This document shows positions 3,295-34,122 of a stretch of DNA of 39,517 nucleotides, in pieces; position 1 is the first letter of the stretch; each line of letters begins with the position of its first letter. The notes below the pieces were generated by a model. It was not told the origin of the DNA, ran no database searches, and worked only from the letters and a program-made list of their open reading frames with translations. Origin of the DNA: an uncultured Bdellovibrionales bacterium. Lineage in GTDB: Bacteria > Patescibacteriota > Minisyncoccia > Moranbacterales > UBA1568. Location of the stretch: assembly GCA_964500865.1 (NCBI GenBank), contig CAZCQJ010000003.1, positions 33,812 to 73,328 of the forward strand, given 5' to 3'. Position numbers and translations under genes: made by a program.

Positions 3295-3368
3295 GCACGC
3301 TTAGCTCAGTTGGTTAGAGCACCTCGTTTACACCGAGGGGGTCCAAGGTTCGAGTCCTTGAGCGTGCA
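3295..3368 (+). tRNA. tRNA-Val(UAC)
   Basis: Acceptor GCACGCT/AGCGTGC, anticodon stem CCTCG/CGAGG, loop TTTACAC, T-loop TTCGAGT. Confidence 0.9.
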
Positions 3369-3418
3369 CAGATGTGTATAAGTGGGGTTTATACAAGAAT
3401 AGACACATCGGAGTGCCG

Positions 3419-3731
3419 GCCGAGGTAGCTCAGTGGTAGAGCAGAGGACTGAATTTCGGTCCCTCTCATAGTGATATGGGATGAGAAAAATCGGGTGAAT
3501 TCGGGGAAACCTACGTTCAGATATTCTGAATATGGCAATCTCGAGCCAACTCCTAAAGGGCAATATGGTTTTAGGAAAGGTGTAGAGACTAGTAAGTGAG
3601 TCCCAACAATACTCTTACAAAAGCGCCCGACTTCTTAGTAAAGAAGATGAGATAGTCCAATCCTTGGGGAAACTCAAGTAAGTGCGTAAAGGAAAATCCT
3701 TGTGTCGGCAGTTCGATCCTGCCCCTCGGCA
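3419..3731 (+). tRNA. tRNA-Phe(GAA) interrupted by a 241-nt group I intron in the anticodon loop (exons 3419-3450 and 3692-3731)
   Basis: The joined exons GCCGAGGTAGCTCAGTGGTAGAGCAGAGGACT + GAAAATCCTTGTGTCGGCAGTTCGATCCTGCCCCTCGGCA give a perfect cloverleaf close to E. coli tRNA-Phe: acceptor GCCGAGG/CCTCGGC, loop CTGAAAA. Confidence 0.9.
3451..3691 (+). ncRNA. Group I (IC3-like) self-splicing intron, no internal ORF
   Basis: The 5' exon ends in U, and GGACU pairs with the internal guide GGUCC (3458-3462), giving the U-G wobble of P1. The intron ends in G (3691). Core strings AAUUCGGGGAAACCUA, UAUGGCAAUCUCGAGCCAA and AAGGUGUAGAGACUAG match the Azoarcus/cyanobacterial tRNA-intron core as I recall it. 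Confidence 0.85.
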
Positions 3732-3777: not shown

Positions 3778-4470
3778 ATGAATAAAAAAGAGCAGGCAGT
3801 TAAACTTAGACAATTTGGGCTCAGCTATTCTCAGATTCAAAGCGAATTAGGTATTTCAAAAAGCACCCTCAGTCTTTGGCTAAAAACAATAGCCCTTTCT
3901 GATGAAGCCCAAGAAAAAATCAACAAGCGCGTCAATAATACTTCTCGAAAAGCTTTGATTCTCCGCAATAAAGCTCGATCGAGTGTTGTCATGAAAGAGC
4001 ATGGTGTTATTAGAAAAGAAGCTGCCAAAGAGTTCGTTCTTTATTTTCAAGATCCACTCTTTATTGCTGGAATATCCCTCTACTGGGCCGAAGGTTACAA
4101 AAAGGGTGCTTCTGGGAGTCGTTGGAAAAGTATAGATCTTGCCAATTCTGATCCTCAAATGATTCTCTTCATGGTTCATTTCTTTAAAAAGTACTTGGGT
4201 GTATCTTTGGAAAAAATGAAGATCCAAATTATTGCTCATGACAACATAGACATAGATGCATCTGTTAGGTATTGGTCTCAACTCACCGGGATACCATCGG
4301 CACAATTCATAAAAACCTCTGTTCTTAATAGAGAAAGGACTTCAAAAAACCCACGAAAACATTCCTTGACTCATGGCACTATTCACGTTAGGATAAACGA
4401 TGTCAAGCTCTTTTTTCGTCTTATTGGCTGGCTCGATGGATTACAAGATTTCTTAAAAAAGAGCGTTTAA
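3778..4470 (+). CDS. HTH-domain protein with LAGLIDADG-like core (possible free-standing homing endonuclease)
   Basis: The N-terminus LRQFGLSYSQIQSELGISKSTLSLWLK is a resolvase/sigma-r4-type HTH. The middle segment FIAGISLYWAEGYK resembles a LAGLIDADG motif followed by an alpha/beta core. The gene starts 47 nt after the intron-containing tRNA. Confidence 0.4.
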   Translation: MNKKEQAVKLRQFGLSYSQIQSELGISKSTLSLWLKTIALSDEAQEKINKRVNNTSRKALILRNKARSSVVMKEHGVIRKEAAKEFVLYFQDPLFIAGISLYWAEGYKKGASGSRWKSIDLANSDPQMILFMVHFFKKYLGVSLEKMKIQIIAHDNIDIDASVRYWSQLTGIPSAQFIKTSVLNRERTSKNPRKHSLTHGTIHVRINDVKLFFRLIGWLDGLQDFLKKSV

Positions 4471-6628: not shown

Positions 6629-6985
6629 ATGCTACACTGGGATATTTACGAAATTACCTCTGAGAAACATTCTCTAAACGGGGTCATGCTCCGTGGACGT
6701 TTGCGTAAATTTTCCGAAGAACATTCACTTGATTTTTTAGTAGAAAATACTGAGGATAAACCAAATGGCGTCCGCTTTGCGGTACTTGCCGGCCAAGACT
6801 CCACTATTCTTATAGGATACCTTACGAGTATCATTCCTGACGCTGCAGTTACCTTGGTTTTACAAAGCGCTACCAATCCAGTTTTATCGAAACTCAAAGT
6901 AAACCAAGCAGACCGCTATATCCTTCAGAACTATGTCTCCTCAAGAAATATCTTATCCTATTATTGGAATGAGTCCGGGAAATAG
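6629..6985 (+). CDS. Hypothetical protein (weak acylphosphatase-like pattern), overlaps the CDPS start by 53 nt
   Basis: 118-aa ORF starting 10 nt after tRNA-Leu. GVMLRGRLRKFSEEHSLDFLVENTEDKPNGVRF loosely resembles acylphosphatase 'G.VQGV.FR......lgl.G.V.N..dG.V'. Confidence 0.35.
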   Translation: MLHWDIYEITSEKHSLNGVMLRGRLRKFSEEHSLDFLVENTEDKPNGVRFAVLAGQDSTILIGYLTSIIPDAAVTLVLQSATNPVLSKLKVNQADRYILQNYVSSRNILSYYWNESGK

Positions 6986-7571
6986 CTACTTCAAAAAAGA
7001 AACGGTTGTTTTCCTTTTGGAAAAAGTTACTAAAGACTTTGGAAGGGCTAGCGTGCTTATTCCTGATATTCCCGCTATTACTACCTATGTAGCTCTCGGT
7101 TACAGTGAGAGTCGCGCTCGAAAAGACAAAGCCATCCCTAAAGGAAATGCTCTCCGTAATAAAGTAAGCGCGGCCATGCAGGAAAATGCATTAGATGACG
7201 ACCTCGTACGCATTTTTGACTGGGCATCAGAAATTGAACCGAATATACTCTACCAAGAAAAACTCGCCTCTATTAAAAAGCTTTACTCGGAGAACAACTC
7301 ATTTCAAGAAGCTATTCGTTCTGCCACCGAAGAAGTTCTTCTGAGTTCTAAAAAACATATTGATAACCTAGAGAAGGCCGTAAGTATTGCTACACACTAC
7401 ATTCTTTCTGAATTTGCCTGCTTAGAGTTCTTGCCGAAGTATCTCGGCGTTGAAAAGGTAGTTTATATATATCACAAATCCTGGCTCGTATACGAAGATT
7501 ACATTGCTGGAAAATTTGATGGTGTTCCTAAAAATCATCTAGCATTCCTGATTATCAAGAAAGTAAGCTAA
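6933..7571 (+). CDS. tRNA-dependent cyclodipeptide synthase (CDPS), NYH-type
   Basis: IIGMSPGNSYF matches AlbC IGISAGNSYF (catalytic Ser, Asn). HYILSEFACLEF matches NYVLAEAPLF (Tyr, Glu). VYIYHKS matches LCYHID (Tyr-His). The size of 212 aa is typical. Confidence 0.8.
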   Translation: MSPQEISYPIIGMSPGNSYFKKETVVFLLEKVTKDFGRASVLIPDIPAITTYVALGYSESRARKDKAIPKGNALRNKVSAAMQENALDDDLVRIFDWASEIEPNILYQEKLASIKKLYSENNSFQEAIRSATEEVLLSSKKHIDNLEKAVSIATHYILSEFACLEFLPKYLGVEKVVYIYHKSWLVYEDYIAGKFDGVPKNHLAFLIIKKVS

Positions 7572-12175: not shown

Positions 12176-12325
12176 AGTGTTATACACCGATTTACACACT
12201 TTTTTTGTTCTCGTTGCCTATATTTTTGTGCAACCCAGAAACATATTCTCTAAACAACGCTTCTGTAAGCGCCACTGTATTGTATCAGATATTCCCAAAA
12301 AACGGTATACTATACACAGATACCT

Positions 12326-13960
12326 ATGCAAAAGACTCTCCTGGCCGCCATTCTATTTACACTCCCCTTTTCCCTACGAAAAGTACTTTTTGTGACGAAT
12401 CCACTAGCCCCGGGAGTATTCAACGAATACATGGACACCAGTGTTTTTCTTTTCGATATCCTTATTTTCCTTTTTGTTACTTATATTATATTAGAACATA
12501 TTTTGATATACAAGTCAAGTTCATGGGGATGGGTACGTGGAATGTTCCACGTGGAACAATTCTCCCCTACACAAAAAATGTTCCACGTGGAACATTTTTT
12601 TATCGCTTTGATTCTAGGTCTCAGCACTATTCTTTCCGTGATTCTTTTTGGGAGCTTTTTTCAATTATTTATTCTCGCAAAAATAGTACTCTACGGGATC
12701 TTCTTTCTCTTTGTTTACAATATCCTATTCTCGGATGTTCCACGTGGAACATTTATACACAAAAATACAGTCCAGAATGTTCCACGTGGAACATTCTTTC
12801 GTTATTCCAGTAACTATATTTGTTCCACGTGGAACAAATTAATCAAATCTACGTCAACAAACTGTTCCACGTGGAACATTTTACAGATCATTCTTTTCAT
12901 CAGTACTATTTCTCAAATACTGCTTGGTATTATACAATTACTCCTTCAGAGATCCATTGGTCTGCGCTGGCTCGGTGAACAAGTTCTTAACGTCAATATT
13001 CCTGGAGTTTCAACTATTATTATTAACAAGGTTGAATTCTTACGAGCCTATGGCACCTTTCTGAATCCAAATATCTAGGCAGGATACCTTATATCTAGCC
13101 TATTACTATTCTTTTTACTTAAAAAATGTTCCACGTGGAACAATGGAGATCCTTTTTCCACAATAAATGTTCCACGTGGAACATTTATACACGAGAATAC
13201 AACTGAAGATGTTCCACGTGGAACAATGGAGACTCTTTTTATTGGTATTATTGGTATCGGTATTATTATCTCTTTCTCTAAGGTGGCCTGGCTTGTTTAT
13301 GGATTGTTTCTTATTGAACATTTTTGGAATGTTCCACGTGGAACATTCTTTTCAAAACTAAATACTAACATTGTTCCACGTGGAACAATTCTTAAAAAAG
13401 TCACTGACTTTTGTTCCACGTGGAACACTCGTAAAATATTGCTCAAAAAATGTTCCACGTGGAACATTTTGATATTTTCTCTCATTATTCTTGGGGGAGT
13501 ATTCTTCCTTTCTCAAATAGACTTCTACTATTATATAGTACAACCTATATTAGAACGTAAATTACAGTATTTGTCAATACTTAGTATACCGAGTCTACAT
13601 ATATGGCTTGGCTCTGGCTTTGGAGGCTACATCTCGTGGCTGAGCACTTCGGGATTAGTAGAGGAGAGCTTCCAGTTACAGCCAGTGCATAATTTCTTCC
13701 TCATGGCCCTCCTTGAAGTCGGTATTCTTCCTATTCTTACCCTTCTGTTCTTTTTTTGGCAGGGGATACGCCGGTTTTTGAAAAACACTCTCACTATCGC
13801 AAAGGAGGCTGGAGTACAGTCTTTAATCTTTGGTGTAGTTCTTCTTGGCTCCTTTGATCACTATTTTTGGGATATTGAAGCAACCCAAATTATCCTTGGG
13901 TTTATACTCGTGATTTTTGTAGGTATCTCTAAAAAAACGTTGTACAAAAATAGTCAGTAG
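12326..13960 (+). pseudogene. Wzy/O-antigen-ligase-like membrane protein. One 545-codon frame with four palindrome-array insertions and one in-frame TAG (13076-13078)
   Basis: ORFs 12326..13078 and 13226..13960 share a frame, and I translated 13079-13225 without a stop. Wzy_C-like segments: RAYGTFLNPNI*AGYL, SFSKVAWLVYG, GSGFGGY, PVHNFFLMALLEVGI, which parallel the paralog at 17244..18497. Confidence 0.65.
12543..13466. repeat. 13 identical copies of the 16-bp palindrome TGTTCCACGTGGAACA (parS-like) in 4 clusters
   Basis: 16-mer starts: 12543, 12579 | 12736, 12778, 12821, 12863 | 13127, 13168, 13210 | 13330, 13372, 13412, 13451. Within-cluster spacings are 36; 42, 43, 42; 41, 42; 42, 40, 39. 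No other copy in the window. It differs at one base from B. subtilis parS, TGTTCCACGTGAAACA. Confidence 0.9.
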
Positions 13961-13981
13961 GGTGTATAATAAAAGAAAAAG

Positions 13982-14950
13982 ATGATGAAAGAGAAAAAAA
14001 TTTCCCTCGTTTTGTATATAGTGTTAGTAATTGGTACTTTTTTTGTTTGGTCTTCCTTCCAAACTGTTCGTGGTGAAAGTATTTTTACCGATAGCGATCA
14101 AGATGGTCTTTCAAACGAAGAGGAGCGCCTCTATAAAACAGACCCTCAGAAGAGAGACTCCGATGGTGACAGCTACTCGGACGGTGTAGAAATAAAGAGT
14201 GGCTACGACCCACTCAAGCCAGCGCCTGGCGATAAGATCTTTATAGCTGCCGCTGACATAAGTCGAGCAGGGGAACAAGCGGTAGCAGGGGATAAAGAAA
14301 ACCTCACAAAAGCACTCTCTCAAGAAATTGCTTCCGTAATCACTGAGAAAGGCGCTTCTGGTGAAGATGTTTCGGTAACAGACCTTGATGTCCGTATCCA
14401 AGAACTTCTCAGTGGAAAGGGCTCTGAGGTAGTGCTTCCTCCGATTGACGTAAAAGGACTTCGCATTAAAAACCCAATCTCAAAAGATCTTTCGGATGAA
14501 GAAAAGAAAGTGAAGGAGAAGGAGCAAGCTGTAAAGTACTTGACATCCATGGCCTATATTTTTGCCAATAACTCTCCTCAAAAATTCTCATCAGAAACCG
14601 AACTTGGAACATCACTCGACACACTCTCTACTCAGGTGATGGGAGCCTTCTCTTCTGGGAATAGCGAAATGATCCACGTGCTTGCCGAAAATGGACGCCG
14701 CACCATAGAAGAAACCCGTGACGTAGAGGTTCCAGAGAGCATGCTACCCTTACACATCAAGGCGCTCCAACTTTCTCAGTACGCCATATCTTTAGAGGAT
14801 GAAGTAAAAACAAATACTGGCGATCCACTGCGTGACATTTCATCTATGATGAAAGTTCAGAGTCTCCTTGCTGCAAGTGCCAGTTATATAGCTGAGCTTC
14901 AACAAAAAATGCAGGAGTACGGTATTACTGACTTGCCTGTTTCTCTCTAA
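13982..14950 (+). CDS. Membrane-anchored/secreted protein with thrombospondin-type-3-like Ca-binding repeats
   Basis: N-terminal TM helix, then DSDQDGLSNEEE..DP.KRDSDGDSYSDGVE. Confidence 0.6.
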   Translation: MMKEKKISLVLYIVLVIGTFFVWSSFQTVRGESIFTDSDQDGLSNEEERLYKTDPQKRDSDGDSYSDGVEIKSGYDPLKPAPGDKIFIAAADISRAGEQAVAGDKENLTKALSQEIASVITEKGASGEDVSVTDLDVRIQELLSGKGSEVVLPPIDVKGLRIKNPISKDLSDEEKKVKEKEQAVKYLTSMAYIFANNSPQKFSSETELGTSLDTLSTQVMGAFSSGNSEMIHVLAENGRRTIEETRDVEVPESMLPLHIKALQLSQYAISLEDEVKTNTGDPLRDISSMMKVQSLLAASASYIAELQQKMQEYGITDLPVSL

Positions 14951-16001: not shown

Positions 16002-16007
16002 CTTCTT

Positions 16008-16037
16008 AAAAACCCGGCCTCAATACGCCGGGTTTTT
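16008..16037. terminator. Bidirectional terminator
   Basis: 11-bp stem AAAAACCCGGC/GCCGGGTTTTT. Confidence 0.65.
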
Positions 16038-16084
16038 AATATCTTCTTCCAGGGATGAGTATCTCGTATTTTTCCTCTCCAAAA

Positions 16085-17365
16085 TTACTCCTCTTTTTTT
16101 AAAGGGTGCAACAAAAGGAATAAGGGGAGAAAATAGACCAATGCAAGGGCGTTCCCAAAAAGAGGAGTGTCGAAGATTCCGTAAGAAAATATCCCTACAA
16201 ATATTCCAGCCAGAACCTTTTCTTCTTCGGAAATATCTCTCCTCTCTAAAGAACGTATCGCTTGAATCCAGAAAAAAAGCATGCTTAACAAACCAAAGAG
16301 CCCTCCCTGGAGCCACAGTGCCAGCACTAAGTTATGCGGCTGAGGCACTGCCCATTCAAGATATGGCGGAAAAAGCGGTTGTAGATAAAGGTATTCTTGC
16401 TGAAAATTTCCCAGACCGATACCTATCACCGGATGTTCTACAATAAGTACTCCGGCACTGCGCCAAATCATCATACGCGAAGCAAATGATGAGCGAGCAT
16501 CTGTCTCTGTAAGAGTAACGAGCTTTTCCTGAAACGTAGCAAACATAAGGATCGCTACAATAAGCATACTCACAAGCAGTCCCCTTGGAGCTCTACATAC
16601 ATTCCCTAACTGGCGAATCCCCAAAAAGCTATACGTAAGAATACTTGCCAAAACAGCCGCAGAGCTCCCAGCAGAGCGTGTTAAAAAAATACCCATTGCT
16701 ACACTCAGAATCAGCGCGACAGCAGTTTGTCGTATCCAGAAAGTCGGGCGTGTTTTAAACATCCACAAGGAAAGCAGTACCCCCGGAAAAAGAAAAAAAC
16801 CAAGGAAGTTTGGGCTCGTAAATACGCCCTCAAGACGACCATCGAAAGTACGTATCCCCAGCACGAGTGCAGGGAGAGTTGCAAGCAAAACGCCGACAAT
16901 GCCCATTATCCAAATAACAAGCGCCTTTTTGTTTCGGCTACTGTCCGTCTGATATGCTACCGCAAAAAGAAGTGTGGCCACCATTGGAAGAATAATCCAT
17001 GATTTTAACAATCCCCAGGCAGTTGCCGACGGAGAAAAAAGTATTCCCAAAAGGGTGCTTAAAATAAAAAGGGCTACTCCTATAGCTACACTCCTCCTGT
17101 ATTCTTTTTGAATTATCCGATGACGACATACTAAGATGTACCCACTCAGTACAAGAAAAACACTATCCAATAGGTACACGGGGAGCGCCGGAAAAACACG
17201 ATTATTCGCAAGAGGAATAAGTAAAAATGCAATGAGCAAAAAACTATACGGTGTCTTGAGGAGTTGATTCCACATAAAGCAGGGCAAGAAGGGCCAGAAA
17301 AAGCGGAGTGATATGAACAGAGAAGAGGGGATTTTCAAAAAGTGACTGTGCAAAAAATAGTACAA
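16085..17365 (-). CDS. O-antigen ligase (Wzy_C) family membrane protein
   Basis: Polytopic membrane protein. LTRSAGSSAAVLASI, GIGLGNF and PHNLVLALWLQGG are Wzy_C-like. The start could be the internal Met at 17275. Confidence 0.7.
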   Translation of the reverse strand: MYYFLHSHFLKIPSSLFISLRFFWPFLPCFMWNQLLKTPYSFLLIAFLLIPLANNRVFPALPVYLLDSVFLVLSGYILVCRHRIIQKEYRRSVAIGVALFILSTLLGILFSPSATAWGLLKSWIILPMVATLLFAVAYQTDSSRNKKALVIWIMGIVGVLLATLPALVLGIRTFDGRLEGVFTSPNFLGFFLFPGVLLSLWMFKTRPTFWIRQTAVALILSVAMGIFLTRSAGSSAAVLASILTYSFLGIRQLGNVCRAPRGLLVSMLIVAILMFATFQEKLVTLTETDARSSFASRMMIWRSAGVLIVEHPVIGIGLGNFQQEYLYLQPLFPPYLEWAVPQPHNLVLALWLQGGLFGLLSMLFFWIQAIRSLERRDISEEEKVLAGIFVGIFSYGIFDTPLFGNALALVYFLPLFLLLHPLKKEE

Positions 17366-18497
17366 GACTTACCATAACCCAAGTACTAGAAGCTACTGGT
17401 AGTGTAGCAGACTTTTGGCGCTGCGCGAACACGGCTACAAGTAGACCGAGGAAAAGTATCAGTCCCACAAACCCGATTTCCACGGCAATATCAAAATACA
17501 TATTGTGCACATAGATTGGTTCTCGGAATTCGGCCGTCGGCTTTACAAGAAGCGGATAACTTCCCAAGCCAACGCCGGCGAATGGCATTACTTGAATATT
17601 TACTACTGCCTCCCGCAAAAGCCTCACTCGCTCACTCACTGATCCATCTTCTAACGAAAAGCTTGAAGCAAAGCGGCTCGCCACAGGGCTAAACATAAAT
17701 ACACTTACACCAAGAACAACAAATCCTGTACGGAGCGGTGTGACGTAACGAGTCAACAGGGAACGACTCTGCCACATGGCGTATACAGTTGCTATAATCA
17801 GACCAACGTAACCTGAGCGAGAGAAAGAAAGACCGAGCGCAGCAAACATCATGCTGCCAAACAACACCCTTTTCCAGAGCGCAAAACGACGACTCTGCCA
17901 CAAGACCAATGGCAACAACATGCCGACAAAATAGGCAAAAATATGCGGGTCAGGAAAAAATGCCGAGGCTCGTAGTAGAGTCACTCCGTGAATATTTACC
18001 AAAAGACTTGGGTACTCCGCGAGAGTGTTCCCGAGACCACCCCCAACAAAAAAGGCGAGTGTATCTACCCAGAAATGGAAAAGTTGACCGACAGGCAATA
18101 CTAATTGTAGCGAAAATTGAAAAAGCCCTATACCTGCTGCCAGTAGACCTGCAAAAAAAAGTGAGCGATACAGTATCAGACGTAGATATTGCTCACGAAA
18201 GACATCAACAAAAACTAAAAAAAGTGGGAAGATATTCCACCAAAAGGCTACCTTGCGTATGGCCCACATGGGATTTAGTGCCCAAAACACAGAAAGTGTC
18301 GCCCACAGTAAAAAGGCTGACCAAAAGAAGAGGACGGTTGGCTGTGGCAAAAAGAAGCGTCTCTGAATGAGATTTTTGGCCAACCAAAAAAGAATCCATG
18401 CCAATGCCAGTATACGTACCATGGGCACCCCCCAAAGGGCAAACCACACTGGCAGTAGAGCAAAGAAAAAAACTACGAACCACTTATGAACGACCAT
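17244..18497 (-). CDS. O-antigen ligase (Wzy_C) family membrane protein
   Basis: SFSRSGYVGLI, GVGLGSY, VHNMYFDIAVEIGF. Start set to ATG 18497 (MVVHKW). The track's longer N-terminus overlaps the GT2 gene. Confidence 0.75.
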   Translation of the reverse strand: MVVHKWFVVFFFALLPVWFALWGVPMVRILALAWILFWLAKNLIQRRFFLPQPTVLFFWSAFLLWATLSVFWALNPMWAIRKVAFWWNIFPLFLVFVDVFREQYLRLILYRSLFFAGLLAAGIGLFQFSLQLVLPVGQLFHFWVDTLAFFVGGGLGNTLAEYPSLLVNIHGVTLLRASAFFPDPHIFAYFVGMLLPLVLWQSRRFALWKRVLFGSMMFAALGLSFSRSGYVGLIIATVYAMWQSRSLLTRYVTPLRTGFVVLGVSVFMFSPVASRFASSFSLEDGSVSERVRLLREAVVNIQVMPFAGVGLGSYPLLVKPTAEFREPIYVHNMYFDIAVEIGFVGLILFLGLLVAVFAQRQKSATLPVASSTWVMVSLVLFFAQSLFENPLFSVHITPLFLALLALLYVESTPQDTV

Positions 18498-19278
18498 ACG
18501 GATAGAAAAATCGATATATAGCTTGCAATCCAATAAAGAGAGTGCGCGTAGTAGGGGACCAGTGCTTATGGAGGTACCGTCGAAGTGAGGTGTCATAGTA
18601 CTGTTTCTGAGAACGGCGTCCTGTGTGACTCTTCCCAGAAAAATGAGTGAGCGAATAGGCTGTTTCGTAATAAACCCGAGACCCGTTCCGGTTTGCCCGA
18701 AGACACAAATCCATATCCTCGAAGTAAAGAAAGAACTGCTCGTCAAAGCCGTTGAGTTGCCGGAAAAGATCCGCACGAATAGCAAAAGCGGCACCGCTGA
18801 CCCAGTCAACAAGACCTGCTGGTCTATAGCGTGTACGCCAGAAAACGCGTCGTAGAGAATTCTTAACTGTCAAAAAGGTGCCCGCACTAAAGGCTTCTGG
18901 GTTACCTTTTGATGTTCGCAAAGAAACACCTACTACACCAATAGCATTTTCTTTGTTAAAAAACTCTCTCAACCGCTGAAGAAAAGCTTCCTGCCAGCGA
19001 GTATCTGGATTCACAAAGAACAAGATATCTCCTGTTGCGAGCGTAGCCCCTCTGTTGGCAGCAGTCGCGAAACCACCGTTGTCATTTGCCTGATCCACTA
19101 ATATCTGCGGAAATTCACTCTTCATAAGCTCAAGAGCAGACGCCTCATCTCGGTCATTGTTAACAATAATGACTTCAAAAAAAGCCTCTTTTTCATATAA
19201 AAAAAGGCTTTTCAGCGATGCTCTCAGCAGCTGACTACTGCGATAGTTTACGAAAATACAACTTATCTTTGGAACCAT
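18484..19278 (-). CDS. Family 2 glycosyltransferase
   Basis: VNYRS...IIVNNDRDE...NGGFATAANRG......FVNPD. Confidence 0.8.
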   Translation of the reverse strand: MVPKISCIFVNYRSSQLLRASLKSLFLYEKEAFFEVIIVNNDRDEASALELMKSEFPQILVDQANDNGGFATAANRGATLATGDILFFVNPDTRWQEAFLQRLREFFNKENAIGVVGVSLRTSKGNPEAFSAGTFLTVKNSLRRVFWRTRYRPAGLVDWVSGAAFAIRADLFRQLNGFDEQFFLYFEDMDLCLRANRNGSRVYYETAYSLTHFSGKSHTGRRSQKQYYDTSLRRYLHKHWSPTTRTLFIGLQAIYRFFYPYGRS

Positions 19279-25045: not shown

Positions 25046-25273
25046 CCTTGTATAAACCCCTTCTTTCTTGTGTATCCTGTGTATAAAAAACAGTCCTTTG
25101 TGTATAAAAACCTCATTTTCTCACCCCACCTCATTTTACCCACATATATGCACCGAGTTATCCTTTTTAGAAAATCCGTCCACAAAGCCAACAAAACCGC
25201 TTATCCACTTATACACCCTGTAATAACAATAATAAGATTTTAAAAAAGAATACTTACTTTATCACCTACACAT
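25046..25273. other. Candidate oriC (DnaA-box cluster plus AT-rich stretch) between dnaA and dnaN
   Basis: TGTGTATAA at 25078-25086 and 25099-25107 (exact TTATNCACA reversed), TTATCCACT at 25201-25209, TTATACACC at 25209-25217, weaker boxes at 25048 and 25069. AT-rich run at 25221-25270. Confidence 0.6.
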
Positions 25274-26398
25274 ATGAAAATTATTTGTACACAAGAAAAT
25301 CTTCAGAGATACCTCTCATTTATGGATCGAGTAATCGTGAAGCAGGCGAGCCTACCGATCTTAGGAAATATTCTTTTTCAGGTAGAAGTAGGACGCGTAA
25401 AACTTTCAGCTACAAATCTTGAAATTGGGGTAACTGGGTACCTTGGGGCAAAGGTTTTAGAGGATGGACTCATTGCTCTTCCGGCAAGAATTATTGGAAA
25501 TTTTGTGAGTAATCTTCCAGTAGGTGACGTGGTGGAAATTAGCACGGAGGACAAAAAGGTTTTTTTGAGTAGCGGAAAACACACACTGTCTATTTTTGGG
25601 GTGGATGGTAAAGAATTTCCACTTATCCCAAAACTTTCTTTTGAAAAAGCATATACGTTACATGGAGAGCAATTTAAAACTGCGCTCCAGAAGGTTTTTT
25701 ATGCCGTTAGCGTAAATACTATTCGTCCAGAATTAACAGGGGTTTATTGTAAATTAACAGATGGCGTGTTAAAACTTGTTGCTACTGACAGTTTCCGTCT
25801 TGTGGAGGAGAGCGTATTTGGCGTTCAGGGTGATGGAGAGGAAGAAGACATGACACGGGGTATTATTGTTCCACTTAGTACTCTTCAGGAGGTAGCACGT
25901 ATTATTACCCCAGAAACAAAAGAGTTGCAATTGGTTACTCATGAGAACCAGATATTCTTTAATATCGAGGGGGTAGAGGTAACTTCTCGCCTTATTAACG
26001 GAAAATTTCCGGATTACGAGCAGATTATACCAACAAGCTTCTCGGATAGTCTCGAATTCCAAAAAAGCGACCTCCAGAGAGCGCTGAAGATTTCGGCAGG
26101 GCTTTCGAGCTACACATCAGGAGAGGTGGCGCTTATTTGTGATAAAGAGAAGCAGGAGATCCGACTGGTATCGCGCTCACACGACGTTGGTGAAAATGTA
26201 AATGCTATTTCCTTTGAGAATCTTCAGGGAGAGAAAACCTGCACATTCCTTTTTCAGGCCCGCTTCCTTCAGGAATACCTTGGGAGTATAGCAAGTGATA
26301 TTGTGCGTTTCTCGTATAATTCAGAGCAAACACCTTTACTCTTTGAAGAGCATGGAGAAGTAAGTGGTCGCTCAATTATTATGCCAATACGAAAGTAG
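25274..26398 (+). CDS. dnaN: DNA polymerase III beta sliding clamp
   Basis: 374 aa with three-domain clamp pattern (ATDSFRLV, LINGKFPDYEQIIP). Downstream of dnaA. Confidence 0.95.
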   Translation: MKIICTQENLQRYLSFMDRVIVKQASLPILGNILFQVEVGRVKLSATNLEIGVTGYLGAKVLEDGLIALPARIIGNFVSNLPVGDVVEISTEDKKVFLSSGKHTLSIFGVDGKEFPLIPKLSFEKAYTLHGEQFKTALQKVFYAVSVNTIRPELTGVYCKLTDGVLKLVATDSFRLVEESVFGVQGDGEEEDMTRGIIVPLSTLQEVARIITPETKELQLVTHENQIFFNIEGVEVTSRLINGKFPDYEQIIPTSFSDSLEFQKSDLQRALKISAGLSSYTSGEVALICDKEKQEIRLVSRSHDVGENVNAISFENLQGEKTCTFLFQARFLQEYLGSIASDIVRFSYNSEQTPLLFEEHGEVSGRSIIMPIRK

Positions 26399-29147: not shown

Positions 29148-30500
29148 CTAGAGAAGTGCTTCAGGGATAACACCGAGCTGAAAAAGAAGCTCTCGGTGAT
29201 TGGCTTTATTCGGGCTGTACTTCCCCAGATATAAGTAGGGGAACCAGTCTGGATTCTGAGAAAATGTCTGCCAGGCAATAATATTTCCCTCTCGGTAAAT
29301 ATGATCTTTGGTAAAGCAGATACCAGGTGTGTGGCAATCTGTGCCACGAAAGGTGCGCACGCAGGCTAGCCAGGCAGCTTCGCGGGCACCCACCAAAAGA
29401 GCATCCCCCGTCTCGTCGACCGTCGGGTCGAGGTAGCGCATAAGTTGGTAGTAAGGCACAAGAATTTCGAAGACACCACGGAAGTCACGCGGAACGCCAT
29501 CGAGCCCAAGAGCCAGTCCAATTGAGAGGGTTCTTTCAGCGCCAGCAAAATCCTCGAAGTTTTTGTGAAGTACCTGTGCCGAAAAAGTAGCGAGACCCTC
29601 CTCGAGGTTATCGTAGTTGGCAAGCCCCAGACTAAGAAGTTTTAGAGGGAGCTTTTCGCCATTCATTTGACGACTTACATGGCAACCAATCTCATGGACT
29701 AAAAGGTCACGAAGTGTTTCAGTGTCCACCTCTCGCTTCTCGGGAATGAAAATAGTTTTTTGCTGGTTGTTAGTGTTAATGGCGCTTTTGCTTGAGCGAC
29801 TAATAACCACCTGCCACTCGGTAAAACCAAGTACTTGGAGGCCCCGAAGGAACACTGTTTGGATTTCGGGTGCAGTATACGTTTTTTCTTCGCGCATATC
29901 TACAAGAGCTGTAAGTGGTGCAAAATATTCCTCGGCATATTTTTTTGCCAAGAGAAAGGCTGCTGGAGCAGAACAGTGAATATCTCGTTCTGTAGGAGTA
30001 TGTATAGGAGGAAGCTTTTCGAGGAGATTTTCAGAGAGCACTTTTGCGACGGTATCGTCACCAGTGATGATTGGCAGTATTTTTTTATGCAAGAAGGATA
30101 GGAGGTTTTCAAAAGTCTCTACCGATGGGCTGCCGTAGAGGAGGGCGCAGTTCTTTTTGAATGTCACCATGTCTCCGGCAGCCACAGAACGGAGTAGATC
30201 AATCTTAGCGAGATCAAGGACGATGTGATTTTGGTAAACCTCCACAACCATATGGTTTGTCTCGCGCTGCCCTATGTCATCATACAGCTCTTTAAGGAGT
30301 CTCTGACGTTCGGTTATTTTTGCAAGATCGATAAAGGGGTATTCGAAAACAGGGTTGTGAATATCTCCAGCAAAAAATTGTTGTTTCGTGTGCTCTCGAG
30401 ATGTAGCATCGCCATCGAGGTATTCGAAGAGAGAAAGATTGCTTGCGGAGAGGAGTTTGGGAAACCATTTCGCATCGAGCTGAAGAGTAGGTTCTGACAT
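29148..30500 (-). CDS. DUF1704 'QEGLA-motif' protein (predicted metallo-carboxypeptidase-like)
   Basis: HEIGCHV (HExxH) followed by LEEGLAT, the QEGLA-motif position. About 450 aa. Confidence 0.7.
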   Translation of the reverse strand: MSEPTLQLDAKWFPKLLSASNLSLFEYLDGDATSREHTKQQFFAGDIHNPVFEYPFIDLAKITERQRLLKELYDDIGQRETNHMVVEVYQNHIVLDLAKIDLLRSVAAGDMVTFKKNCALLYGSPSVETFENLLSFLHKKILPIITGDDTVAKVLSENLLEKLPPIHTPTERDIHCSAPAAFLLAKKYAEEYFAPLTALVDMREEKTYTAPEIQTVFLRGLQVLGFTEWQVVISRSSKSAINTNNQQKTIFIPEKREVDTETLRDLLVHEIGCHVSRQMNGEKLPLKLLSLGLANYDNLEEGLATFSAQVLHKNFEDFAGAERTLSIGLALGLDGVPRDFRGVFEILVPYYQLMRYLDPTVDETGDALLVGAREAAWLACVRTFRGTDCHTPGICFTKDHIYREGNIIAWQTFSQNPDWFPYLYLGKYSPNKANHRELLFQLGVIPEALL

Positions 30501-30586
30501 GTGGAGGTAAAAAGTAAAAAAGAGGGCAGCACCCTCTTCTTTATTGTAATCGCTCTCCAGAAATAAGTGAAGTGAGATAGTAGTAG

Positions 30587-31537
30587 CTAGGGAAGATTCT
30601 TCAGGAAGGCCTGAAAATACGATTCTCGGAGAGCTTCATTACCGAAAGCGTGCAGAAGATCCATTCCAGGAGCAGTGTTCATCTCGACTAAGAAGGGTTT
30701 GCTACTTTCGTCAAACATGAAGTCGAGCGAGTAACTAGCGCCAGGGAAAGCTGAAAGCTTTTGAGTAATTTGTTCTGCGAAGTCAATAACATTTGGTGGG
30801 AGTGCATCTGGCAAAATAATTTCTGCGCTGGCTCCCTGGTGGAAGTTTGTAAACAGCGAACCTTGAGACGCAATTCGTGAAATAGCGTAGGCAAAGGTGT
30901 GGTTGATATAGACGAGACGCAAATCAACAACTTCATCAGGCTGAGAGAGCGGCGGGATGCCAGTGGTCACTACAAATGTTTGTGCAAGGAGCGGAAAGGT
31001 AAGTGGCATCTCGTGGAGCACCGCTTTGTTCTCAATAAGCACGCCGTGTCCACCGGATCCATGAAGAGGCTTTAAGACTGCCTTCTCGCCGATAAGTGTA
31101 TCGAGAGCCATGGTGAGTTCTTGGGGTGTTGTAACCAGAAACGATGGCGCCATAAACTCCTGCAAGAAAAGATATTGCGTAAATTTGTTATCCATTGGTG
31201 TGCGGAAGAGGGGGTGATTCACCATCTTGGTACGTTCTGCCATTTTCATCTTAAGGGCAAAGTAGCGGTAGTTGTGCTTACCGGCCACCTTATCGAGGAT
31301 AAGGTCTGGGGTAACTGGTTCTGGTGCTTTCTGCCAGTGGTTATCGCGAAACATCCAGGCCTTATCGAAAGTGCCTGTGGCGCAGTTATACCACTTTATA
31401 TGGGCTCGATAAAAATGTACACCAAGAATTTCTCCCTTAATATGCCATTCTTCGAAGGCGCGCTTAGTGGGGGTATTTAGTATGGGGAATTCCTCGTTCC
31501 AGTCATCCTTGTTGTAGAGTACGACGATGTGTTTCAC
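30587..31537 (-). CDS. ATP-grasp family ligase
   Basis: VLKPLHGSGGHGVLI, and the LVEMNTAPG C-terminal Mg/ATP-binding region. 4-nt overlap with the upstream gene. Confidence 0.7.
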   Translation of the reverse strand: MKHIVVLYNKDDWNEEFPILNTPTKRAFEEWHIKGEILGVHFYRAHIKWYNCATGTFDKAWMFRDNHWQKAPEPVTPDLILDKVAGKHNYRYFALKMKMAERTKMVNHPLFRTPMDNKFTQYLFLQEFMAPSFLVTTPQELTMALDTLIGEKAVLKPLHGSGGHGVLIENKAVLHEMPLTFPLLAQTFVVTTGIPPLSQPDEVVDLRLVYINHTFAYAISRIASQGSLFTNFHQGASAEIILPDALPPNVIDFAEQITQKLSAFPGASYSLDFMFDESSKPFLVEMNTAPGMDLLHAFGNEALRESYFQAFLKNLP

Positions 31538-32943
31538 AAAATTCCTTTAGTCACATCGATATAGAATTGCCCAAGGTTTTTGGCGCCAATAATTGCCTTG
31601 TAGCGAAGGTGACCACGATCGATAATCGATACGCGTGTATTAAATGATTCTCCACCGAGAATAAGGTTAGTGTTAATCATTGGTCGGTATGAGGTGCCAT
31701 GCGAAGAATTTACGGGCACTTTTCCGGCGAGGTGTTCAATGCCGGCGAAGAGGCGAGCGCGTTCTTTTTGAGTGAGCTCTGCTAAGACGTCACGACCATT
31801 CTGGCGTGATTGAAATTCATCGAGCATGGCTTGGTAGCCGAGTTCATGAGCAAGTTCGGTATCGATAGAGGTTGAGTCGGCGCCGGTGTCGATTTTGGTG
31901 AGGACGTCGATTGTTTTACCATTGATGCCGGTGAAGGTAACGGTTTCGTAAGCACCGATAACACGCTTGCCAGAAATCTCCTCGATCTCCTCTTCAATTT
32001 CTCCACCAAATAAATCCATACCTACGCGAATACCCCGAGCAACACTTTTAATTTTGATACCACTCACGCGTTCAAGACGTTCCTTAAGACCAGCACTGTT
32101 CGCCAGCTGAATAGAAAGTCCTGGGCGGGCATTGAGCTCGATGATGACTGGGCCATGATCACGGTCAATCGCGATGTCGGCACCTAAAAATCCAAGACCA
32201 GAAATTTCCTGGGCCTTAGCAGACAGGTAAAGAATTTCTTTCCAGTGAGGAATTTTCATTCCAGAAAGCAAGAGTTCGCTGTCGGGGACGTATTCGATAG
32301 GGTGACCCTTGCCATAAATAGCGCTGGTAGTAATGCCGGTAGCGAGGTCGATACCAACGCCAATAGCACCTTGCTGGAGGTTGGCCTTACCGCTCGAAGC
32401 GCGAGTTGGGAGGCGGAGCATTGCCATTACCGGTACGCGATTAAACACGATGACACGGATGTCTGGTATACCCTTAAATGAGTATGGTTTAAAAAACTTA
32501 TGGAGTTTGAGGCGCTCTTCAAAAAAAGCCACGTCGGGAGTATTAGCTAGCGAAAAAGAGCCGTCTAAGATGTTACGGATATGGGCCTTAAGATCTTCAA
32601 TGGTCACCATACTGCCGTCGGCTTTAATCCAGGCGTCAGGGCGATTTTTTTTGCGGGCAAAAACTACTAAGATTCCTTCTCCACCAAAACCACGATTTGG
32701 CTTGAGAGCAAAACCGCCGGGTAATGAATTCCAGTTAAAGTTTTCGAGTTCTTCGTAATTACGAATACGCCCAAGTAACGCCGGAACTGCAATGCCATTT
32801 TTATGCAGCACGCGCTTCGAATAAAGCTTCTCGTCAGCCAAGCGACGAGCTCGTTTTTTATTATACGGACGAACATACTGAAGGTTGCGGGAATTCATCC
32901 CGAGAACCTTGTTCCCGTTTATGAGGAATTGAAGAATATTCAT
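31534..32943 (-). CDS. RimK-related alpha-L-glutamate-ligase-like ATP-grasp fused to a RimB-like retropepsin ('ATP-dependent Zn protease') domain
   Basis: The N-terminus LGMNSRNLQYVRPYN..RARRLADEKLYSK and FALKPNRGFGGEGILVV are ATP-grasp. The C-terminus LTKIDTGADSTSID ... SIIDRGHLRYKAIIGAKNL has the DTGA aspartyl-protease fold signature. Confidence 0.7.
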   Translation of the reverse strand: MNILQFLINGNKVLGMNSRNLQYVRPYNKKRARRLADEKLYSKRVLHKNGIAVPALLGRIRNYEELENFNWNSLPGGFALKPNRGFGGEGILVVFARKKNRPDAWIKADGSMVTIEDLKAHIRNILDGSFSLANTPDVAFFEERLKLHKFFKPYSFKGIPDIRVIVFNRVPVMAMLRLPTRASSGKANLQQGAIGVGIDLATGITTSAIYGKGHPIEYVPDSELLLSGMKIPHWKEILYLSAKAQEISGLGFLGADIAIDRDHGPVIIELNARPGLSIQLANSAGLKERLERVSGIKIKSVARGIRVGMDLFGGEIEEEIEEISGKRVIGAYETVTFTGINGKTIDVLTKIDTGADSTSIDTELAHELGYQAMLDEFQSRQNGRDVLAELTQKERARLFAGIEHLAGKVPVNSSHGTSYRPMINTNLILGGESFNTRVSIIDRGHLRYKAIIGAKNLGQFYIDVTKGIL

Positions 32944-32953
32944 AGCCCTCTTA

Positions 32954-33619
32954 TTACAGCTGCTTGAGCACCCGATGGAAGCGCAGGTATTCGCTGACGC
33001 GGAGACCTGACCAGCGACCCAGAATAAAGTTGATCACAAAGGTGAGGAGAATGAGCCAGGGGTATTTCAGGAGTGCCAGTACCAGCCCCTGCCAGTGAAT
33101 AAGGTAATACCCGACGATCGAAATAAGCAGGGTTTCTCCGGCCAAGATAAGGGCAGTTTTAGTACCTTTTTCAATTTGAGTGGCCACAAATTTTTCAGCT
33201 AAGCTAATCATAATGAGGAGCGGGAAAATAGACACTGCAGCGAGACCGGTGCGCTGGTAGAGACCACCAATAGTCAGGACGCCCAAAATAGCGAGCGATA
33301 CTACCGAAAGGGTAATAGCTACACGAGGCAAGTATAAAAGACGAAAGTTTTTCAGGACGTAGCGAGTCACCATCCCGACGACCAGAATACTGACAAAAAT
33401 AGCAACGCCATACTTAAGTCCGTTCGGGTCAAAGGCAAGGAGTGCGAAGGTAAAGATCGATGGTGTATAAATACCGAAGGCTTTAATACCAACTACCTGA
33501 CGGAAAAAAGCCACCAAAGTCGCAATGACTGGCAGCATGAGGAGTAGGGCGACCGTCTGTAGAGGCACGCCCTGAGCAAGAAACAAAGAAACAAGAGCGT
33601 GGTATTCCTGGTAAGCCAT
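32954..33619 (-). CDS. 7-TM membrane protein (7TM domain usually fused to inactive transglutaminase)
   Basis: Seven hydrophobic helices. FRQVVGIKAFGIYTPSIFTFA matches the conserved first-helix region of that family as I recall it. Confidence 0.6.
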   Translation of the reverse strand: MAYQEYHALVSLFLAQGVPLQTVALLLMLPVIATLVAFFRQVVGIKAFGIYTPSIFTFALLAFDPNGLKYGVAIFVSILVVGMVTRYVLKNFRLLYLPRVAITLSVVSLAILGVLTIGGLYQRTGLAAVSIFPLLIMISLAEKFVATQIEKGTKTALILAGETLLISIVGYYLIHWQGLVLALLKYPWLILLTFVINFILGRWSGLRVSEYLRFHRVLKQL

Positions 33620-33630
33620 AGAATTGTAGA

Positions 33631-34122
33631 TTAGTGATCAAGATGCCTATCAAATGTCATTCGAGCCGAGTGACAGAGGGCGAGCGCAAGGGCGTCGGCC
33701 GTATCATCTGGCTTGGGTATCGTTGCAAGGTTTAGCAGGATACGAACCATTTCCTGAACCTGGCGCTTATCGGCGCGCCCGTAGTTCGTCAGGGCCTGCT
33801 TCACCTCGAGCGGTGTGTACCCCGTTACAGTAACAGAAAACGACTGAAGTGTCAAGAGTATAACGCCGCGCGCCTGGGCTACATCAATAACGGTTTTTTG
33901 GTTATTATAAAAGAAAAGTTCCTCGACGGCAGCAGTATCTGGCTTATACAGCTCAATAATATCTGAGAGATCTTGATAAATTTCTAGAAGGCGTTGAGAA
34001 AGAGGGAGATTTTTATCTGTACTAATGTGGCCGTAAGCGACCGACTCATTTTTTTGGCCAGTTTTACGCACAACACCCCATCCGATGGTGGCGAGCCCTG
34101 GATCAATACCAAGAATAATCAT
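33631..34122 (-). CDS. ruvC: Holliday junction resolvase RuvC
   Basis: MIILGIDPGLATIGWGV ... AVEELFF ... DTADALALALCH. Confidence 0.93.
   Translation of the reverse strand: MIILGIDPGLATIGWGVVRKTGQKNESVAYGHISTDKNLPLSQRLLEIYQDLSDIIELYKPDTAAVEELFFYNNQKTVIDVAQARGVILLTLQSFSVTVTGYTPLEVKQALTNYGRADKRQVQEMVRILLNLATIPKPDDTADALALALCHSARMTFDRHLDH

Follow-up and report, generated by a model that had tools for sequence, protein, structure and literature searches.

A 39,517-bp stretch of DNA (hereafter the window; positions 33,812 to 73,328 of contig CAZCQJ010000003.1, GenBank assembly GCA_964500865.1), deposited as belonging to an uncultured Bdellovibrionales bacterium and placed by GTDB in the Moranbacterales of the Patescibacteriota, contains thirteen perfect copies of a 16-bp sequence known as a parS site, all of which are read in frame within one gene for an O-antigen-ligase-like membrane protein. 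It is probable, in our judgement, that these form an ancient, gene-embedded and origin-proximal parS array on which the ParB CTPase clamp is loaded in an ultra-small bacterium of the Patescibacteria, or candidate phyla radiation (CPR), and the host gene, which bears such arrays in distant relatives too, appears to serve them also as a centromere. The case is built on the identity of the sites, their coding context, selection upon them at the level of DNA, their conservation, their restriction to one gene and, in this lineage, their proximity to the origin, all of which are shown here.

A pattern search of the window found TGTTCCACGTGGAACA thirteen times between positions 12543 and 13466 (924 bp), with no mismatch in any copy, and found no further copy when up to two mismatches were allowed. 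The number of matches expected by chance is 0.01, and in none of 100 shuffles were 13 reached. This is the same count as was given in a preliminary description of the DNA, whose grouping of the sites into four clusters of 2, 4, 3 and 4 with spacings of 36 to 43 bp was also recovered on measurement (Table 1). Start-to-start spacings are 36 bp in the first cluster, 42, 43 and 42 bp in the second, 41 and 42 bp in the third and 42, 40 and 39 bp in the fourth; the gaps between clusters are 157, 264 and 120 bp, and the overall density is about one site per 70 bp. Tandem Repeats Finder reported no array in the window, and the repeat families that can be recognised there rest on the 16-mer itself, which is the sole part common to all units. 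A few pairs of spacers are alike (60-86% identity), including pairs drawn from different clusters, and the others are unrelated.

The preliminary description had further proposed that the sites are phased on the helix. This holds for the window in so far as its spacings of about 42 bp are near four helical turns, but across 128 homologs (1,234 sites) the spacings are mainly 37 and 49 bp, with 46, 43, 41 and 40 bp next in frequency, and show no 10.5-bp periodicity. The spacing of about 42 bp is particular to the window, and strict helical phasing was rejected as a conserved feature. In the same homologs 78% of spacings of 70 bp or less are equal to 1 modulo 3, with the consequence that the reading frame rotates from site to site. 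Much of the spacing pattern across homologs is probably owed to shared ancestry, and the shortest common spacing, 36-37 bp, may reflect a steric limit.

The assignment of the repeat to the parS type was likewise borne out. The 16-mer is identical to the parS2 and parS3 sites used experimentally in P. aeruginosa and to the P. putida parS consensus given in a review table, in which M. xanthus is listed with 22 sites of TGTTCCACGTGGAACG. All 13 copies fit the chromosomal parS consensus tGTTNCACGTGNAACa. Unbiased DNA scans for the exact 16-mer were made in genomes and in metagenomes, with 120 loci listed from each, and are to be read as samples and not as censuses. Among the matches listed, it is common in many phyla for exact copies of the 16-mer to occur in pairs and triplets at distances of 35-50 bp, and the statement in the preliminary description that chromosomal parS normally occur as dispersed single sites was therefore too strong. 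An ORF (open reading frame) with the ParB-like motif GERRxRA lies no more than 8 kb away at about 40 of the 120 listed pair loci. Of the listed triplet loci that are not of the Wzy type, some two thirds share their short contig with ParA- or ParB-like ORFs. Both Patescibacteria loci among the matches listed in the genome scan are Wzy_C ORFs, and of the 17 loci with at least nine sites among those listed in the metagenome scan 12 or 13 are Wzy-like. No par gene was found near any of the Wzy-type loci examined.

All 13 sites lie in frame within a single plus-strand ORF of 545 codons, as read from its translation, a coding context that had gone unnoticed in the preliminary description. The palindrome is translated in all three phases, giving FHVEQ or FHVEH at two sites, VPRGT at six and CSTWN at five. 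With C at position 5 and G at position 12 the 16-mer holds a stop codon in no frame of either strand; the classical TGTTTCACGTGAAACA has TGA in one frame. That the C5/G12 variant of parS is stop-free in every frame helps to explain how the sites are able to reside within a gene, as does their position in four loops between transmembrane helices, loops that are poorly ordered in the structure model of a homolog (below).

The window protein has no match in Pfam, whether it is searched as the two halves of the annotation or after removal of the inserts, and its assignment to the Wzy_C family is made through its homologs. A query from which the inserts had been removed matches motif-free PF04932 (Wzy_C) proteins with E values of 1e-18 to 1e-9, and PF04932 is present in many of the homologs that bear arrays. 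The best PDB match to an AlphaFold model of one homolog, P0003 (pLDDT 77, pTM 0.79), is a weak one, to the WaaL O-antigen ligase 7TPG (probability 0.98, E 0.05, TM-score 0.29-0.38). Three of the four site-bearing stretches of the model are low-confidence segments between confident helices, and a lone first site falls at the start of a helix. If WaaL has, as we take it to have, 12 helices with the N-terminus inside and the loop carrying the conserved His outside, the four insert positions would by analogy be the loops between helices 2/3, 4/5, 6/7 and 8/9, all of them predicted to be cytoplasmic.

The sites can be compared with those of a close relative, L001, a JGI metagenome contig in which the gene order is that of the window (UDG, DHH, RbfA, the host gene, a TSP3-repeat protein, a protein of about 350 amino acids, two Wzy_C proteins, two GT2 proteins, flippase, Jag, YidC, RnpA and dnaA). 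Here 14 exact sites lie in an intact ORF of 561 codons. The differences between this array and that of the window consist of whole units, 36, 51 and 42 bp long, and each of these lengths is divisible by three. Between the two loci the sites are identical at 192 of 192 positions (100%), the spacers at 161 of 211 (76%) and the remainder at 693 of 810. Synonymous divergence (dS) in the core codons is 0.77 and the ratio of nonsynonymous to synonymous divergence (dN/dS) is 0.16, indicating that the host protein is under purifying selection, and in the spacer codons the corresponding values of 0.44 and 0.62 suggest that the spacer peptides are relaxed and nearly free to change. In the site codons dS is 0 and dN/dS is undefined, with no synonymous difference in 51.5 synonymous sites, against about 25 predicted from the core rate. 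Set against the core dS, this total lack of synonymous change indicates that the 16-mers are kept unchanged as DNA, and it upholds sequence-specific selection, one of the two causes proposed earlier for the identity of the copies.

These data leave almost no room for the view that the peptides FHVEH, VPRGT and CSTWN have a function of their own in the protein, with the identity of the DNA as a by-product. Such a view could point to the loops in which the motifs lie and to the purifying selection that acts on the protein, but it would have to explain how three unrelated peptides come to be specified by one 16-mer in three frames and why the codons concerned show no synonymous variation. It would also have to accommodate three more distant loci (L124, L125 and L126, described below) at which the number of peptide motifs equals the number of exact DNA sites, which means that no synonymous versions are present.

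Conservation was followed further with two protein searches. A homology search, word-seeded and hence biased, gave 464 proteins, and each of the best 120, which were listed, carries 2-18 copies of the three peptide motifs taken together. An exhaustive profile search of 1.84 billion representatives gave 5,647 matches at E ≤1e-30, and among the best 150 of these, which were examined, 97 of 107 new 50%-identity representatives have one motif or more, with a median of 4 and a maximum of 13. Named members of the family belong to the Patescibacteria, Parcubacteria, Moranbacteria/Moraniibacteriota and Minisyncoccota. Homologs across the Parcubacteria and Moranbacteria at 30-40% identity bear 2-18 exact sites, and in an alignment of 11 sequences (32-40% identity) one VPRGT block shows no variation and two CSTWN blocks show little or none, from which it follows that some sites occupy homologous positions. 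To judge from such shared positions in proteins of only 30-40% identity, the gene-embedded arrangement is ancient. Motif-free relatives of about 400-470 amino acids also exist, for example one from Blackburnbacteria, and this fits the site-bearing segments being additions to the protein. In one homolog from a Logan assembly, P0007, most sites have decayed in the peptide (VFLVEH, CSTRN, LFHAEH, VLRGT, CSTGN) and three exact sites remain; this represents either a lineage that is losing its sites or a poor assembly.

Six distant loci, L124 to L129, contain 11, 9, 18, 4, 11 and 10 exact sites respectively, all in the host gene or at its 5' edge, and no site was found in their flanks (up to two mismatches being allowed for L124-L126, and exact matches being sought for L127-L129). 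When the window and L001 are included, 90 of 90 exact sites at eight loci lie in the host gene or at its 5' edge, and the flanking DNA, about 170 kb in all, is free of them. This bears directly on the possibility, raised in the preliminary description, of a selfish and stop-free palindrome resembling the Rickettsia palindromic elements (RPEs) or a miniature inverted-repeat transposable element, inserted repeatedly in frame into a tolerant gene and of no function to the cell. The in-frame and stop-free nature of the insertions, their position in loops, the differences of whole units of 36, 42 and 51 bp between close relatives and the occurrence of related spacers in different clusters are all features that such an element might be expected to show. 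It is nevertheless very unlikely, since no copy lies beyond the one gene in the flanking DNA of the eight loci, the two other Wzy_C paralogs of the window are free of sites, and conservation is confined to a 16-bp core with no longer element around it. Homologous positions in proteins of 32-40% identity indicate vertical inheritance, and the sequence itself is that of a validated parS, found beside parAB in other phyla.

There is likewise only a negligible chance that the array is an artefact of assembly, in which a collapsed or expanded repeat has been joined wrongly. The genome is metagenome-assembled, identical 16-mers are able to confuse assemblers and there is an unexpected nonsense codon nearby (see below), yet the unique spacers give an unambiguous path through the array. 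The 14-site array of the close relative is identical in three independent JGI assemblies with both flanks present, and homologous arrays occur in one intact ORF in hundreds of independent assemblies. Arrays of this kind have been recovered from JGI (three contigs), NCBI, ENA and Logan.

In the window the array lies 10 kb from dnaA and about 11.6-12.7 kb from the predicted oriC, and the origin-proximal layout is the same in L001. The proximity to the origin that had been noted beforehand is thus confirmed by dnaA together with a cluster of DnaA boxes and a GC-skew minimum at about 25 kb. The earlier statement that the window has no parA or parB also held, in that no ParA or ParB domain was found in any of its sizeable ORFs. 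In a survey of 2321 CPR genomes the ParB family (PF02195/K03497) is present in 1717, ScpA in 1010 and ScpB in 1006, and the ParA-type family (K03496), marked as depleted, in 617 (Méheust et al., 2019; PMC6744442, Table S2). The same table lists a Wzy_C family with a median length of 706 amino acids and 12 transmembrane helices in 1657 CPR genomes against 122 other bacteria, marked as enriched, and we infer that this is the array-bearing family.

Several points weigh against the array being a ParB loading platform. Genes for ParB, ParA or SMC are absent from the window and from within 10 kb of the array at all eight loci, and no dnaA lies within that distance in the more distant relatives, so that proximity to the origin is seen in the window and L001 only. 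Thirteen roadblocks within a transcribed gene is an awkward layout. In this genome the host gene is in addition interrupted by a nonsense codon, a TAG at 13076 that falls in the conserved motif PNI(L/Y)xGYL, and the NCBI annotation splits the ORF into two coding sequences of 250 and 244 amino acids, which are the same as P0122 and P0121 and lie on a contig of 75,438 bp. Array-bearing genes are split or cut short by gene callers, as in P0001, P0121 and P0122. The nonsense codon is either recent or an error, and the host protein appears still to be made, as suggested by the intact ORF of the close relative and the low dN/dS of the core. Binding by ParB, the loading of clamps and any role of SMC or in segregation are all things that we infer, by analogy with known systems.

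It must also be considered that the sequence would be conserved just as well by an RNA hairpin or by some other DNA-binding protein with the same palindrome as its target. The palindrome might in that case be an operator through which some other protein regulates an envelope operon, or a hairpin in the mRNA (a 6-bp stem with an ACGU loop) that acts in translation, stability or termination. The sites do lie within a transcribed region, no ParB is seen in the window of this genome, and some sites are the cores of palindromes of 20-24 bp that are followed by T-rich tracts and are positive in a terminator scan. An RNA stem would however accept compensatory changes, and the sequence is invariant across hundreds of homologs. 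When one-residue variants are counted in 274 proteins of the family, VSRGT (position 5, C to T) comes first with 83 cases and FHVK (position 12, G to A) second with 28, and CpG-type changes at positions 8 and 9 rank after them. Positions 5 and 12 are the N positions of tGTTNCACGTGNAACa. The variants are single-sided and concentrated where ParB is tolerant, and the constraint seen in these sequences, with an invariant core and tolerance at positions 5 and 12, fits the specificity of ParB. Given in addition that the 16-mer is canonical parS and that a ParB family is found in most CPR genomes, a role unconnected with ParB is unlikely. As a separate observation, perfect 24-bp palindromes are present at 12774-12797 (AGAATGTTCCACGTGGAACATTCT) and 13447-13470 (AAAATGTTCCACGTGGAACATTTT), each with a T-rich tract after it and flagged by the terminator scan, and these two might attenuate transcription within the host gene.

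If the array does load ParB, dimers of the protein would recognise each 16-mer, bind CTP, close as clamps and slide on to flanking DNA, as in characterised systems, and the presence of 13 sites in 924 bp would multiply the rate of loading at one locus about 12 kb from oriC. The resulting complex would then organise and segregate the origin region, probably mainly through the loading of SMC-ScpAB, a route that is favoured because ParA is scarce in CPR genomes. Copy number shifts by the gain or loss of whole units of site plus spacer, with lengths that are multiples of three. A bolder suggestion, which we think rather doubtful, is that the centromere and the envelope gene are coupled and not just co-located, either because transertion, the insertion of the 12-helix protein into the membrane during its transcription and translation, tethers the origin region to the membrane or because occupancy by ParB gates the Wzy-TSP3 operon with the cell cycle, and that the long CPR Wzy_C family owes its length and conservation to the centromere role.

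The occurrence of parS, of parS clusters and of parS within genes is already known. The chromosomal sites parS2 and parS3 of P. aeruginosa share the same 16-bp sequence and are origin-proximal, with several sites per chromosome, and in M. xanthus the sites (22 in number) are clustered as they are here. The parS site within spo0J of B. subtilis is a precedent for location in a coding region. The window differs from these in having 13 sites, and its relatives 2-18, packed into one gene and all perfect, and in that the sites are in frame within membrane-protein loops, are kept in distant relatives and are not beside parAB. No account of a conserved array of 2-18 perfect sites read in three frames in the loops of one membrane protein was found in the literature that could be searched, from which subscription journals are mostly absent.

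The preliminary description had likened the array to the F-plasmid centromere sopC, with which it shares many 16-bp palindromes at spacings of about 40-44 bp and the expectation that a large ParB-type complex would be nucleated. sopC is a true tandem repeat of conserved 43-bp units, non-coding, situated beside sopAB and made up of a different site bound by SopB. In contrast, the spacers of the window are mostly unrelated to one another and coding, its four clusters are split by coding sequence and no tandem array was reported in it; the 76% identity of spacers against 100% of sites between close relatives and the absence of an adjacent partition operon in the window and across the eight loci, with no par genes within 10 kb, likewise speak against the comparison, which fits the density of the sites but not the build of the array. 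An architecture that is genuinely sopC-like and built of chromosomal parS is found on another contig, L169 (Ga0256914_1002894), where positions 12271-14014 hold four exact parS, a parA/soj-like ORF (12444-13217) and then a tandem array of at least 18 parS, with a conserved unit of about 44 bp, that continues past the end of the contig. At a further locus, L239, seven units of 43-44 bp lie beside a ParB-like ORF. Other dense arrays of exact parS are placed outside clear Wzy-like genes: 14 sites in 620 bp at L246:3-622 (62% G+C), 14 sites in 1.5 kb at L184:2211-3749 and at L216:2201-3768 (63% G+C; parA or parAB follow closely downstream) and, at L195:8113-8909, 16 sites in 800 bp.

A likeness in coding context is offered by gidA/mnmG of bacteria of the Planctomycetes-Verrucomicrobia-Chlamydiae (PVC) group, in which 2-4 exact 16-mers lie in frame in a conserved coding gene. 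At L062, L081, L083, L095, L099 and L115, from PVC-group and other genomes, 2-4 parS in the gidA/mnmG ORF split the Pfam GIDA match into two or three stretches, a second instance of parS lying in frame within a conserved gene. The differences from the window are the smaller number of copies, a host gene that encodes a cytoplasmic enzyme, and the phylum. The gidA/mnmG gene is classically next to parAB and oriC. RPEs resemble the present sites in being palindromic DNA that lies in frame in coding genes and adds loop peptides while the ORF is kept. They are however about 100-150 bp long and scattered through many unrelated genes, and to our knowledge have no known binding protein, whereas the conserved core here is of 16 bp only and confined to one gene.

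Two other identities were considered and rejected. An array of clustered regularly interspaced short palindromic repeats (CRISPR) or of the tandem interspaced guide RNA (TIGR; Tas) type does not fit, as the array is coding and without a box C motif and the window has no Cas or Nop-domain protein; an array of that type would be non-coding, with box C/D motifs or longer repeats and an adjacent cas or tas gene (features of TIGR arrays from PMC12045711). DNA uptake sequences are scattered genome-wide, and the copies here are confined to one gene.

Table 1. The parS array, its host gene and neighbouring features in the 39,517-bp window
Feature	Position	Strand	Remarks
Host ORF	12326..13960	+	O-antigen-ligase-like (Wzy_C-related) polytopic membrane protein; bears all 13 sites
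In-frame TAG	13076..13078	+	Lone interruption of host ORF; TAC (Tyr) in L001, Leu in other homologs
parS site 1	12543..12558		Cluster 1; frame gives MFHVEQ
parS site 2	12579..12594		Cluster 1; frame gives MFHVEH; 36-bp unit without counterpart in L001
parS site 3	12736..12751		Cluster 2; frame gives VPRGT; position invariant in 11 aligned homologs
parS site 4	12778..12793		Cluster 2; frame gives VPRGT; core of 24-bp perfect palindrome AGAATGTTCCACGTGGAACATTCT
parS site 5	12821..12836		Cluster 2; frame gives CSTWN
parS site 6	12863..12878		Cluster 2; frame gives CSTWN; position invariant or nearly so in 11 aligned homologs
parS site 7	13127..13142		Cluster 3; frame gives CSTWN
parS site 8	13168..13183		Cluster 3; frame gives VPRGT
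parS site 9	13210..13225		Cluster 3; frame gives VPRGT
parS site 10	13330..13345		Cluster 4; frame gives VPRGT
parS site 11	13372..13387		Cluster 4; frame gives VPRGT
parS site 12	13412..13427		Cluster 4; frame gives CSTWN
parS site 13	13451..13466		Cluster 4; frame gives CSTWN; core of 24-bp palindrome AAAATGTTCCACGTGGAACATTTT
TSP3-repeat protein (bacterial)	13982..14950	+	Pfam; downstream of array gene in most relatives (L001, L124, L125, L126, L129)
Protein of ~350 amino acids	14955..16001	+	No known domain; conserved downstream neighbour
Strong terminator-like hairpin	16006-16039		3' of the ~350-amino-acid gene
Wzy_C paralogs	16085-17365 and 17244-18812		No site in either
dnaA	23594..25045	+	Pfam Bac_DnaA, 4.3e-68
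Predicted oriC	25078..25209		Four DnaA-box-like 9-mers in dnaA-dnaN spacer; cumulative GC skew minimum
dnaN	25274-26398		After dnaA

Some other features of the window were noted in passing. A match to a group I intron (Rfam, 75 bits, E 1.7e-17) lies on the plus strand at 3441-3679, some 70 bp beyond the 3' end of a tRNA-Val(tac) gene at 3295-3369, and is followed by an ORF with an HTH_23 domain at 3778-4470; at the syntenic locus L124 a nearby ORF of 226 amino acids has a faint LAGLIDADG_3 match. A plus-strand ORF at 6933-7571 has a clear cyclodipeptide synthase domain (PF16715, E 2.7e-28), which is unexpected in so small a genome. On the minus strand at 29148-33619, ATP-grasp proteins (ATPgrasp_ST), a 7TM_transglut membrane protein and a protein with a MATCAP-like carboxypeptidase domain form a cluster that looks like a putative peptide-modification module.

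Should the proposed role of the array be correct, the centromere would have been located for the large and almost uncultured Patescibacteria/CPR group, the chromosome biology of which is essentially unstudied. The array offers a concrete locus for chromatin immunoprecipitation of ParB, for heterologous ParB-parS assays and for tools with which to mark the origin. It would also be a long-held case of dual coding, in which a DNA-protein recognition site is maintained within a coding gene in three frames, as the stop-free C5/G12 variant of parS makes possible. The array may explain the unusual length of the CPR-enriched Wzy_C family, and for annotation it means that the loop peptides VPRGT, CSTWN and FHVEH are to be read as the footprints of DNA sites and not as protein motifs.

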